DNA of 30,260 bases, taken from a virus (lineage: Duplodnaviria > Caudoviricetes). The DNA is taken from positions 1-30,260 of IMG/VR virus record IMGVR_UViG_3300042393_000465, one strand, 5' to 3'. Position 1 is the stretch's first letter. Every line of letters starts with the position of its first letter. The translations under genes were made by a program, and so were the position numbers. Shown here piece after piece: positions 1-30,260 of this stretch. Under the pieces are notes generated by a model. It did no database searches. It saw only the letters and a list, made by a program, of their open reading frames with translations, and had not been told where the DNA came from.

Positions 1-254
1 AGTTGCTTCGATAACCTTGTATTCAATATCGTTTGTTTGAACGTCGGTAATTTCTACTTTCTGCGGGCGCGTTGAATTAGTGTAAACCGCTCCTATTATT
101 ATTCTTTTCATATCAGAAAGGTAAGTAATCTTGTTCCTCATTCGGTGCGTGCGCTTTCATTTGGTCAACACGTGCTTTGTCCTGAATACTTTCACCGTTA
201 CCGTTTAATCTTTCAAGTCGCCAAGCTTCCAACGTATTAAAATATTTAACTTCA
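1..254. repeat. Terminal direct repeat, left copy (circularisation overlap)
   Basis: 1-254 matches 30007-30260 base for base except position 127 (a) versus 30133 (c). Confidence 0.97.
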
Positions 255-5123: not shown

Positions 5124-5173
5124 AGTGTCTACAAATATAAGTACTATTTATTAATTAAATACACTTTTATTAA
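5124..5173 (-). promoter_or_regulatory. Bacteroidota-type promoter P2 with TTTATTAA boxes
   Basis: TATATTTG at 5139-5132 on the minus strand; near copy of P1. Confidence 0.75.
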
Positions 5174-25671: not shown

Positions 25672-25918
25672 TTTTAATAGGTTTAGATTTGTATAAAAAT
25701 TCAACTCCGATTTCGTTTTCTGCACACCAAAAATAGTTTAGTAAAACCATAAATGTAGGGTGTGGTTTTTCGTTCATAAATTCTACAATCAAAGTCCCTT
25801 TGTGGTCATTAATACTACAAATTTCTTCATCAAATTTATGATTAACAATTCTTTGTGCAATTCTACTTAAACGTTCTGTTCTGTAAAATTCATTATAACT
25901 TGGCATTTCTATTTTCAT
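25661..25918 (-). CDS. Hypothetical protein
   Basis: 85 aa, ATGA overlap with the primase gene. Confidence 0.7.
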   Translation of the reverse strand: MKIEMPSYNEFYRTERLSRIAQRIVNHKFDEEICSINDHKGTLIVEFMNEKPHPTFMVLLNYFWCAENEIGVEFLYKSKPIKNDL

Positions 25919-28209
25919 TTCTCTTCAATTTTTTTAATTAAACGTTGAATTTGTATTCTTGAAACCCCTAACAATTCAGCTACTTTTGTTCGGTTAAAAT
26001 CATTATCCGATTTATAAATAGCTTGTAATTTTTCAAAGGTTGTTTCAGCACCTTTTGAAGCCGTTTTTAAATCTTTTATTTCGGTTGCTTCAATCTTTAT
26101 TTTCTTTGCATTCATAACAAAGTAATTACTTAGTTTTTCGGCTTTCAACATGGATTCTTTATTAATCCAAATTACATTAATATTTTCATCAAAGTTACTT
26201 TCAAAAAAATGTATTAACAACGCAAACCTTGGAATGTAGCTTTTTTGTTTTGGGAACATCGATTTAAGATATTCGTTTTCCTCTTCGCTGTTTTGTTCTT
26301 TTGTTATTCTATTAAAAATACGTTTCCATTCTATTTTAGCTTCGCCATCAAAACGAACCCTCAACGGTTCAATATCGTTTTCGTTATTACGCTTAATCAT
26401 TTTTTGTTTAATACCTTGGTAAAACCGAACTATCGTGTCTGAATACCATTGTAAAACCGAATAATCAACTTCGTTATCGTTGTATTCGTCAATCGTTGCA
26501 TCTGGAAAACTTAATAACATACGGTCTAGAAATCCGTTATCTTTATTTTCGTCGGTTGCAAATGTATTAAAAACGCTTGGTTGAATACCGCCCAAAACGG
26601 GAATAAAAGGTTTTTCAATAAACGAACCCGCTCGGGTAATTCTATTTAAGTAAACACTTTTACCGCTCCAACAACTTAACCAAAATTCTAAATCCGACCC
26701 GCTACGGTATTTATTCATATCCTTAAACCACCCCGCAAGTTCATCTTTAAAAACACCAACCGAATTATCGTTTTCTTGGTGTAAATCAACTAACGCCTCC
26801 AATGTAATATCGTTTACTAGAAATTGCGTTTTCTTTGGTAATTGCGGTAATTCCAAACCTAAATCGTTACGTTCTTTTTTACTTAAAGATTCGATATAAT
26901 CAAAGCGTTCTTTTAGTTCCTTATACTTTTTTATTTCTTTAAAGTTTAATTTACTTAGTGGAAAAATTATATTGTTAATACTTGGTGTTTTACCTATTCC
27001 AGCTTTACCAACAACCGCCAACCAAACAACGCTATTTTCAACCCAACCTCTTTTAACCTCAACTTCGGCACAATTACCTATGCACGTTGAAATTAACCAT
27101 AACAAAGAACAACCCATGTAATCAATATTTGAATCCAATTTATTGTTACATTCTAAAATATAGTGTTGAATTTCTTTTGGAAAAATATCTAGTGGAAAAC
27201 TAACATTTTTTATCGGTAAAGGTTTATCAATTTTAGGTTTATTCTCTTCGATTTTTTTCTTTAACCTACTCCCAAAACCTTGTTCATATAAATCCTTTGT
27301 TGACTCTTTAAAATCGCCGTTGTGGTATTTATAAGAATACGCCACAAAAGGCGAAATTAACTTTTCATTTGGGTAAATTGTAGCCGTTGAAAACAAATAC
27401 ATACAACCACTATCGCGGAATACATAACCCGAATGGTCAGATGTTGCATTGTGTCTTTTAATTAAATAATGTTTGTTTTTTTGTCCGTTTGTTGGAATAA
27501 AAAAATCGTCACTTATAACGTTCCAAATATCTGTTTTATCGTTAAAATCCTGCCATGGTGTTATTTCACCATCTAGGTAAATTTTAGAATCCTTTTTTGG
27601 TTCTATTGGTTTTTCATCTATAAAATTATACGCTTTTGAAATTCTCCAAAGTGTTTCCCTATCTTCATCGCTAATAAAATCTATTTGAAAATAAGTTAAT
27701 CCAGCGTATTTATTTTTAGGGTAAATAAAAATATAACCACCTATTCCGCGACTTTCTAAAATAGCTTCTTTATGACCTTTTAACTTTGCGATTTTTTCAT
27801 TACCTACAACTCGTTTTGATTTGTAAAGAATATGAAACCCACCACTTGCTGTTGTGTAAACCGCAAACTTTTTTTCGAAATCAATAATGTTATCTTTTAG
27901 GGTTTGGTAATATTCATTCCAAAATTGATTTTTTTCTATTTGTGTCGATAAAACCTTGGTATCAACATCAACACATTCTAAAAATTCAAACCCCGTAATA
28001 ATACCTATTGCAATTGTTTTTGATAATTCTATTCCGTCTTTTTTAAATATACCACCTTGGTAATTTAATCGCTTTAAAAACTCTTCTTTTTGTAATTTTT
28101 CATTTTGGTTTTTATTCCAACTAAAATTTGGTTTTTTACCGCTTTCAGATTCTCCAACAGTTAAAAGTGAAAACCTTTCTAAAAAATTAATAGCTTGTTG
28201 TTCATCCAT
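25915..28209 (-). CDS. Bifunctional Prim-Pol primase fused to DUF3987-type helicase with C-terminal HTH
   Basis: VDVD, T.SGGFH and ESRG.GGY (AEP); GKAGIGKT Walker A; FKDEL; NGFLDR; C-terminal NRTKVAELLGVSR HTH. Start placed at MDEQQ (28209); the ORF track start at 28242 lies inside a hairpin arm. Confidence 0.88.
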   Translation of the reverse strand: MDEQQAINFLERFSLLTVGESESGKKPNFSWNKNQNEKLQKEEFLKRLNYQGGIFKKDGIELSKTIAIGIITGFEFLECVDVDTKVLSTQIEKNQFWNEYYQTLKDNIIDFEKKFAVYTTASGGFHILYKSKRVVGNEKIAKLKGHKEAILESRGIGGYIFIYPKNKYAGLTYFQIDFISDEDRETLWRISKAYNFIDEKPIEPKKDSKIYLDGEITPWQDFNDKTDIWNVISDDFFIPTNGQKNKHYLIKRHNATSDHSGYVFRDSGCMYLFSTATIYPNEKLISPFVAYSYKYHNGDFKESTKDLYEQGFGSRLKKKIEENKPKIDKPLPIKNVSFPLDIFPKEIQHYILECNNKLDSNIDYMGCSLLWLISTCIGNCAEVEVKRGWVENSVVWLAVVGKAGIGKTPSINNIIFPLSKLNFKEIKKYKELKERFDYIESLSKKERNDLGLELPQLPKKTQFLVNDITLEALVDLHQENDNSVGVFKDELAGWFKDMNKYRSGSDLEFWLSCWSGKSVYLNRITRAGSFIEKPFIPVLGGIQPSVFNTFATDENKDNGFLDRMLLSFPDATIDEYNDNEVDYSVLQWYSDTIVRFYQGIKQKMIKRNNENDIEPLRVRFDGEAKIEWKRIFNRITKEQNSEEENEYLKSMFPKQKSYIPRFALLIHFFESNFDENINVIWINKESMLKAEKLSNYFVMNAKKIKIEATEIKDLKTASKGAETTFEKLQAIYKSDNDFNRTKVAELLGVSRIQIQRLIKKIEEK

Positions 28210-28336
28210 TCCGCCCAATGTATTAAAAATGATAAAGCCCATTAATTCTAAGCAGGTGCGGTGCTTTTAAACTAATAGGCTTTAAATAATTTTTTAGTGA
28301 CTAGTAAGTTAATATCCGCACAATTAACTTTTCACG
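28207..28336 (-). ncRNA. Putative structured 5' leader RNA with two complementary-loop hairpins
   Basis: Hairpin A 28330-28306 has loop UGUGCGGAU; hairpin B 28284-28233 has loop CCGCACC. G-U pairs form only on the minus strand. Confidence 0.6.
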
Positions 28337-28380
28337 TCCACAAATATAGTAATTTTTATTAAATACAACCTATTTTATTT
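28334..28380 (-). promoter_or_regulatory. Promoter P3 for the replication operon
   Basis: TATATTTG at 28348-28341 followed by TGGAC as in P1, with a TTTATTAA box at the same spacing. Confidence 0.7.
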
Positions 28381-28387
28381 ATTTTTT

Positions 28388-28568
28388 TAGGTGTAACATA
28401 GGTGTAACATGATGTTGCACCTAATGTTACACCTTTTTTCTATATTCTATAAGGGTTTGAATGCAATAAGTGTAACCTGTAACATGATGTTACACCAAAA
28501 AAATATTTTTTTTATTTTATTTTTTATTTTTACTAGTGTAACCTATGTTACAGGTTACAGGTTACACC
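28388..28568. repeat. Iteron array, putative replication origin
   Basis: Five TGTAAC, five GTTACA and one GTTGCA variant in three clusters, with an almost pure A/T spacer at about 28497-28532. Confidence 0.8.
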
Positions 28569-28601
28569 AAAAAAAAAGCCTTACAATTACGCAAGGCTTT
28601 A
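28569..28601 (-). terminator. Intrinsic terminator after exonuclease, shielding the origin
   Basis: AAAGCCUUGC-loop-GUAAGGCUUU followed by a long U-run. Confidence 0.8.
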
Positions 28602-28620: not shown

Positions 28621-29250
28621 TTAAATTAAGTTGAATTGCAAGTTAGTTTTTATTTGCTCAACGTATTTATCGCGTAAAATTAGCGCCTCTAAGACACGTT
28701 CTTTAATTTTAGATATAATCTCTTCGTCGCGTTCAATAATAACCGTGTGGTGTATTTCTTTACCGTTCCAAATACCGTAATTAAAAAAATATGCTTTATC
28801 TTTTTCGGCGCATAACATTTCCATTTGCATTTGGTATTGATATTTTTTATCAATTTCGTTTGTTGCTATCAATTCAAATAGTGTTTCGGGTTTCGGGCAT
28901 TTGATTTCTAAAACAGCGTTATCGGAAACAATACCGTCGGGACTTGCACCCGCAAAAGTATCGTAAACGAAAAATTCGCATTGTTGAGCATTAATAAAAT
29001 TCTCTTCATTCAAACGATTAAAACATTCAAATGCAAGGGGTTCGTATTGTACCCCTCGTTGCATATCAAAAGACATAAAACTATCCTCTTCGTCACGTCC
29101 GAAAACAAGTTCACACGCTTTCGAAAACGCGTAACCTTCACCCGTTAAACCTAAACCTTTTATTCCCATTAATTTATGGATTTCCGAACCCGTAAAGCGT
29201 CCTAATCTTAATTCGAACCATTCGTTAGTTCGTTGTTCTACTTGCAACAT
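28621..29250 (-). CDS. YqaJ / lambda exonuclease family protein
   Basis: QRTNEWFELRLGRFTGS, GASPDG, LEIKCP and YQYQMQMEM motifs. Confidence 0.92.
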   Translation of the reverse strand: MLQVEQRTNEWFELRLGRFTGSEIHKLMGIKGLGLTGEGYAFSKACELVFGRDEEDSFMSFDMQRGVQYEPLAFECFNRLNEENFINAQQCEFFVYDTFAGASPDGIVSDNAVLEIKCPKPETLFELIATNEIDKKYQYQMQMEMLCAEKDKAYFFNYGIWNGKEIHHTVIIERDEEIISKIKERVLEALILRDKYVEQIKTNLQFNLI

Positions 29251-29940: not shown

Positions 29941-30117
29941 TTATAAGTGGTAAAGTCTTAAAAAACGTTCTTTACTGCAAACAAAGTAATTGATTGGGTT
30001 TTTTGAAGTTGCTTCGATAACCTTGTATTCAATATCGTTTGTTTGAACGTCGGTAATTTCTACTTTCTGCGGGCGCGTTGAATTAGTGTAAACCGCTCCT
30101 ATTATTATTCTTTTCAT
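29941..30117 (-). CDS. 58-aa hypothetical protein MKRIIIGAVY... (5' part duplicated at 1-111)
   Basis: ATG immediately after the DUF3127 stop; contiguous across the circular join. Confidence 0.65.
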   Translation of the reverse strand: MKRIIIGAVYTNSTRPQKVEITDVQTNDIEYKVIEATSKNPINYFVCSKERFLRLYHL

Positions 30118-30260
30118 ATCAGAAAGGTAAGTCATCTTGTTCCTCATTCGGTGCGTGCGCTTTCATTTGGTCAACACGTGCTTTGTCCTGAATACTTTCA
30201 CCGTTACCGTTTAATCTTTCAAGTCGCCAAGCTTCCAACGTATTAAAATATTTAACTTCA
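30007..30260. repeat. Terminal direct repeat, right copy
   Basis: Matches 1-254 with one mismatch. Confidence 0.97.

Follow-up and report, generated by a model that had tools for sequence, protein, structure and literature searches.

A loop-pairing RNA leader with a third complementary site at the start codon precedes a phage primase-helicase gene

In plasmids of the IncI-alpha (ColIb-P9) and IncB groups, repZ translation is activated by a pseudoknot, in which a hairpin loop pairs beside the rep start, and is blocked by the Inc antisense RNA, with specificity held in a short loop. Attenuators of the pT181 type are driven by a countertranscript and place a terminator between the promoter and the rep gene. 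The P4 CI RNA is described as ending transcription through base pairing with its two flanking sites, seqA and seqC, and both P4 CI and the P1/P7 c4 RNA (RF01695) are presented as termination control in which a central element is complementary to upstream and downstream leader sites ahead of replication genes (PMC4825925). Table 1 of PMC2864571 gives Proteobacteria and their phages as the distribution of c4. Structured candidates also appear in the tables of Fremin et al. 2023 as unnamed csRNAs: DNAVirus_4940 and DNAVirus_773 lie within 25 bp of VirE/PriCT primases in freshwater phages, and DNAVirus_7276 lies within the same distance of DUF3127 SSB genes in Bacteroides phages (PMC10690425).

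The leader described here is an uncatalogued regulatory RNA structure and a new variant of loop-pairing replication control. It was found in the window, the whole 30,260-nt stretch of DNA that was analyzed. The window is the complete record, and its last 100 bases recur near its start, indicating a complete, circularly permuted phage genome of ~30 kb. Nearly all genes of this genome, which has a G+C content of 33.5%, are on the minus strand, and Pfam and PHROGs profiles matched a terminase, portal, holin, DUF3127 SSB, YqaJ exonuclease, and methylase. Relatives of the SSB belong to Flavobacterium, Cellulophaga, and Nonlabens phages, and relatives of the primase in genome assemblies are mostly from Bacteroidota; no close cultured relative of the primase was found.

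Gene order runs from the YqaJ exonuclease gene (28621-29250; PF09588, E 3e-16) through an intrinsic terminator ending that gene (28565..28600, minus strand; 11-bp stem and T run), ten short repeats, a promoter, and the leader to the primase-helicase gene. The terminator is predicted to set the leader promoter apart from the YqaJ gene. The ten 7-nt repeats (28390..28570), both direct and inverted and lying in an A+T-rich gap, are putative iterons of a likely replication origin. The regulated gene (25915..28209, minus strand) encodes a 764-aa primase-polymerase with a DUF3987 helicase domain (PF13148, E 3e-56) and a weakly matched C-terminal HTH (PF13384, E 3e-5, just below the cut-off); its PHROGs matches are phrog_19930 (primase/polymerase, E 7e-24) and phrog_2373 (helicase, E 4e-38).

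All sequences quoted in the initial annotation of this locus lie where it placed them on the minus strand. The promoter (28341..28368, minus strand) is of the Bacteroidota type and consists of TTG, 17 nt, and TATATTTG at 28348-28341, and transcription would start near 28336. Hairpin A (28297..28335, minus strand) has an inner 8-bp stem (28330-28306) and an outer GUGA/UCAC helix, and its loop displays the address GUGCGG at 28321-28316. Hairpin B (28233..28284, minus strand) is a terminator-like stem of ~21 bp (−21 kcal/mol) with the loop CCGCACC at 28261-28255; its two reported G-U pairs are both internal, and a third, beyond the reported count, is predicted at the internal loop. Two elements had been missed: an interrupted U tract 3' of hairpin B (28225..28236, minus strand; 6 U in 9 nt) and hairpin C (28207..28220, minus strand), a 4-bp stem of CAUU and AAUG around the loop GGGCGG. 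The 3' arm of hairpin C includes the start codon, and its loop is the third site that had been proposed as a weaker partner of loop B. This site is indeed at 28216-28211, one base before the ATG at 28209, but its strength proved close to that of loop A, with pairing energies of −10.1 kcal/mol for the third site and loop B (6 bp plus one bulged A) versus −11.2 kcal/mol for A:B.

Folding and shuffling agree with the proposal that hairpins A and B can kiss through six GC-rich bases. The minimum free energy (MFE) fold of the window leader contains both hairpins with their loops open, and a G+C-rich loop-loop match of at least 5 nt occurred in 0 of 2,000 dinucleotide shuffles of the 131-nt leader. 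The fold energy of the leader is modest (z −1.93), with 9 of 200 shuffles as stable and 32 of 2,000 in a second run. Hairpin B has the features of an intrinsic terminator or attenuator, a stable hairpin followed directly by a U tract, although it was not called by a simple terminator scan, in which the limits on loop and stem rule out long stems with interruptions. Hairpin C alone is marginal (−1.8 kcal/mol in the window and −0.8 to −1.8 kcal/mol across the leaders computed), so a partner would be needed for it to block initiation. A different ATG, at 28242 inside the 3' arm of hairpin B, was rejected as the primase start because it is in frame in 8 of 22 related leaders and out of frame in 14; the ATG at 28209, already favored in the initial annotation, is therefore the conserved start.

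These related leaders, the 22 distinct upstream sequences of the window's own cluster (the clade leaders), all keep the promoter motif TAnnTTTG, and 20 of them have U at 7 of 9 positions after hairpin B, compared to 6 of 9 in the window copy. They comprise two types. Type I (9 leaders) has CCGCAC in loop B, GGGCGG at the third site, and either GUGCGG (7 leaders) or GGGCGG (2 leaders) in loop A, while type II (13 leaders) has CUGCAU in loop B and AUGCAG both in loop A and at the third site. Loops A and B and the third site switch jointly, at the same two pairs, between types, in keeping with the earlier suggestion that loop B could pair with either loop A or the initiation region. Among 15 aligned leaders, the A:B helix was 97.8% paired and the B:third-site helix 93.3%, compared to 31 to 53% in slid controls, and the identical two pairs were changed on both sides in both helices. 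These counts represent one evolutionary switch inherited in many copies, not many events.

In the same 15 sequences, the basal 12 pairs of hairpin B were 100% paired, five of them varying on one side only, and two-sided changes occurred in three of three loop-closing pairs. Stem A was 69.5% paired, with a two-sided change at one inner pair; the score is low because the types differ by one loop base, which shifts the alignment register. A new feature is that the third site forms the loop of an invariant hairpin C, with the start codon in its 3' arm, in 22 of 22 clade leaders. The loop, flanked by CATT and AATG in every case, covaries with loop B, and the four stem pairs, three bases of which are the AUG, never vary, making covariation uninformative for them. 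Linkers are narrow in this clade, at 14 to 15 nt from the base of A to the base of B and 15 to 18 nt from B to C. Apart from 12 unrelated matches among 37 in the second, two tighter pattern scans returned only this clade before the same gene, with no third type of loop, and a loose promoter/hairpin-A pattern gave unrelated matches only.

Across 20 primases placed on a tree with an outgroup, leader type changed 5 times, with at least four changes forced by well-supported branches; 84 to 85 of 500 shuffles gave as few changes, and 0% of bootstrap trees had a single change. Leader type was independent of iteron type, HTH, and primase lineage. This pattern of repeated change on the primase tree, independent of iterons, points to leaders being swapped as modules. 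A separate association was seen at the repeats: repeat type at 28390-28570 varies together with the last (recognition) helix of the primase C-terminal HTH, in the last 20 codons, with three combinations found (window, L001, L002, and L005). This suggests that the origin and the HTH binding domain may co-evolve, independently of leader type.

The leader is not confined to the primase-helicase gene: its two-loop core proved widespread and also occurs before other genes. Of 255 loci (counting the window and some duplicates between scans), 36 were dropped for having no ATG (27), being too short (5), lacking an N-terminus (3), or having a distant ATG (1), which left 219 with a usable 5' end. The 147 distinct upstream regions formed 69 clusters, 36 of which had a promoter-like motif 75 to 170 nt before the ATG, using a pattern widened after initial leaders were inspected, and 32 of these 36 also had a hairpin of at least 12 bp. 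A 5' segment matched the apex of its own hairpin over at least 6 nt in 29 of 32 clusters and at least 7 nt in 22 of 32, compared to 11% and 4% of 992 non-cognate pairs, and the cognate match total was reached by 0 of 100,000 permutations. With two clusters with weak hairpins removed, site A was inside a predicted hairpin in 22 of 27, and at least 6 U occurred in the 9 bases past the last G-C pair of stem B in 22 of 27, versus 8% of comparable 9-mers drawn from 37 element-free clusters. Loop pairing was present without a U tract in three lineages.

Among 42 other clusters, 13 had the element 314 to 2,002 nt upstream, ahead of another gene. The detector found none in the flanks of the remaining 29, some of which are detector misses; for example, the element is visible by eye in L030, L075, L385, and L392. 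Across the class, HNH, SSB, and small unknown genes are headed as well. A blind scan of six cultured phages found two convincing copies in mumin9-1 (before the HNH-SSB unit and before the helicase-primase unit), one in 11b, two in FL-1, and none in P12024S, Fpv8, and 1/32, with one weak extra match each in mumin9-1, FL-1, and the window. By inspection, class members have no nucleotide identity past the promoter and A/U tracts; they share shape rather than sequence, so family models miss them. Their 58 distinct address strings (about four probably false, some near-duplicates) showed ~1.5% cross-pairing after identical ones were collapsed. Cognate duplexes of 8- to 9-mers with flanks had energies of −8 to −12 kcal/mol and cross-type 6-mers −3 to −5.8 kcal/mol, values that are not strictly comparable.

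A third site general to the class was rejected in a test of the 58 addresses. Perfect third sites occurred in 3 of 58 addresses, one of the three in the window clade, versus 1.3% expected, and sites matching 5 of 6 bases or better occurred in 22% versus 20% expected. One unrelated leader lineage (L342) has a perfect 6-nt third site 8 nt before its primase ATG, plausibly an independent case. In three other clusters (L310, L363, and L378), a short hairpin without a U tract lies within the 100 nt upstream of the primase ATG, its large loop pairs with a 5' site, and a second copy of its 3' arm adjoins the ATG; these variants are possibly an independent translational switch.

Compared with the known systems, this leader is a member of neither the P4 CI/c4 nor the IncI families. 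Searches against Rfam returned nothing for the window, for the leader even at E up to 10, or for 20 homologous loci, and the c4 covariance model was among those without a match. The seqA/seqB/seqC arrangement of P4, raised in the initial annotation, is the closest analogy in logic: targets lie on both sides of the central element in 22 of 22 clade leaders, but not generally in the class. Unlike P4 CI/c4, pairing here involves a single 6- to 7-nt loop, hairpin B resembles a terminator in its own right, the rep AUG is directly enclosed by the downstream site with no kil/icd-like ORF between, and no lysogeny genes were found in the window phage. The proposed kinship with IncI/IncB extends to a hairpin loop pairing beside the rep start and specificity in a short loop but does not amount to membership, since a conserved leader peptide and counter-transcript promoter are absent; opposite-strand TAnnTTTG, the only motif used in this comparison, occurred in 4 of 27 elements versus 5 of 37 controls and nowhere within 400 nt of the leader in the window. 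The downstream pairing is also predicted to be repressive here, and there is an extra upstream loop and a U tract. As in pT181-type attenuators, a terminator-like hairpin separates promoter and rep gene and is presumably switched by RNA pairing, but no antisense gene is evident and pairing is confined to loops. The csRNAs of Fremin et al. are marked as non-terminators of 67 to 85 nt, and the main text does not use the words "kissing" or "primase" (PMC10690425); compared by their tabulated descriptions, they are a possible partial earlier detection of the class. Passages on structured motifs in surveys from 2010 and 2017 contain nothing like the leader (PMC2864571 Table 1, PMC5737381), and literature searches covering few subscription papers found no description of the element.

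Gating of the primase gene at the RNA level is highly probable. For how the gate works, we assign a probability of roughly 0.45 to a self-feedback model, combining an attenuator with a start-codon lock, by which the leader RNA would limit expression of its own gene. On the nascent transcript, loop A would capture loop B as it emerges, hindering closure of terminator B, keeping loop B off loop C, and leaving the start codon free. When RNA was truncated just past loop B, the predicted MFE structure included the A:B helix for 5 of 6 leaders, while in full-length RNA this helix was 10 to 15.5 kcal/mol above the two-hairpin fold in the five computed, indicating that pairing is favored while hairpin B is unfinished. 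The same energy difference led to rejection of a stable nested antiterminator in full-length RNA. Hairpin B would end a fraction of the transcripts, which calls for some means of read-through, and short leader RNAs ending at B would accumulate with genome copy number. These RNAs would bind loops A and C on subsequent transcripts, favoring termination and locking the AUG: with loop A taken by the loop B of another molecule, stem B would close and either terminate or, if read through, let loop B pair with loop C, holding the AUG within a stem. Primase-helicase synthesis would thus be under negative feedback, with a specificity set by each loop sequence. Structure at the start codon is reported to tune initiation in Flavobacterium (PMC6847099).

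Trans action would be favored by the 58 addresses, their low cross-pairing, and the exchange of leader types among primase lineages, and in the absence of a conserved antisense promoter, the leader is the only evident address-specific partner. A rough estimate from general helix dimensions suggests that fully folded hairpins A and B on a 14- to 15-nt linker would need a strong bend to kiss in cis, and loop B may be left free in a completed, terminated RNA. Against the model, the terminated RNA holds both A and B and could self-pair and be inert unless geometry or processing prevents this. Neutral compensatory drift and the usual mosaicism of phages would also produce diverse addresses and swapped modules, the window U tract is interrupted, the three-way switch is a single event, and the third site is not general.

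Most of the data are also explained by a device acting in cis only, in which the rate of read-through and translation, fixed or kinetic, is set by A:B (and B:C) pairing while the loops drift neutrally and no RNA acts in trans. The narrow clade linkers are what cis geometry needs, simple dosing would suffice for the HNH, SSB, and small unknown genes that the class heads, and the element occurs in a phage described as lytic only (PMC7077304). Yet linker length does not track stem length across the class (rho 0.06, p 0.78), a loop with two competing partners implies two states and something to trigger them, and a fixed dose requires no 58 different addresses; we consider this reading a serious one with the odds somewhat against it. 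If instead a protein (the primase-helicase, a phage antiterminator, or a host factor) bound the kissing fold regardless of loop sequence and shifted it for autoregulation or timing, loop type would be expected to be independent of primase lineage, as was observed. Promoter-proximal terminators released by proteins are common in phages. Such a protein is nonetheless improbable, given that the class precedes unrelated genes, that its members have only the promoter and A/U tracts in common at the nucleotide level, and that the scanned window ORFs included no candidate regulator.

An IncI/IncB-like arrangement, with a B:C pseudoknot activating translation and a separate counter-transcript blocking it, would account for a loop that pairs beside the rep start as in ColIb-P9 and for the ATG within the 3' arm of hairpin B. 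It is highly improbable, however, because 14 of 22 leaders have that ATG out of frame, leaving no conserved coupled leader peptide, because no conserved antisense promoter was found, and because B:C pairing would stabilize the AUG-containing hairpin and so predicts repression. The chance that the signal acts as DNA, either as three operator copies or as a single-stranded fold used by the primase at the adjacent origin, is very slight. The leader does abut the iteron array, and sites A and C are direct repeats with B as an inverted copy, but every site is in a hairpin loop between promoter and ATG, loop type follows neither iteron type nor HTH, and the class occurs away from origins. The transcribed strand also folded better in 26 of 27 elements, a count biased by choosing hairpins on that strand.

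The leader had also been put forward as a stand-in for a CI repressor of lysogeny, which the gene content does not support. Scans of the window ORFs (30 plus 21 with Pfam, partly overlapping, and 40 with PHROGs) detected neither an integrase nor an S24 repressor, neither was found in five of five relatives rated 98 to 100% complete, and Muminviruses are described as having lytic replication only, from absent lysogeny genes (PMC7077304). Dose or timing control therefore fits better than lysogenic immunity; a plasmid-like state is conceivable. The leader would represent RNA control of replication genes in phages of a phylum for which literature searches gave no precedent, and in phages without sign of lysogeny. 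An extended form of the model, which we regard as unlikely, would make Flavobacteriales phages home to a large family of self-addressed leader RNAs that serve as protein-free genome counters. A terminated transcript would repress its own operon, dozens of orthogonal loop codes would define incompatibility or superinfection groups even in lytic phages, and the window clade would add a second lock at the start codon. The class is directly testable in the cultured phages mumin9-1, 11b, and FL-1 with tractable Flavobacterium hosts. Orthogonal loop pairs would also be of use as regulatory parts in Bacteroidota, where genes are not under Shine-Dalgarno control.

Other features of these genomes were noted in passing. 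Two further promoters of the same type, with closely similar upstream A+T tracts, lie on the minus strand of the window at 5139 and 1947, and their ~20-nt leaders have no such hairpin structure. The ends of the window (1-254 and 30007-30260) overlap across the SSB gene with at least one difference, the last residues reading QDYLPF versus QDDLPF. Genomes with two leaders (L220, L223, L394, and L399) had differing loop sequences in four of four cases, as chance also predicts. Finally, the leader often heads a small ORF family beginning MK(L/I)FIT ahead of replication genes, as in the upstream flanks of L054/L340, L349, and L358 and at 12828-13079 of L394 (mumin9-1 gp37).
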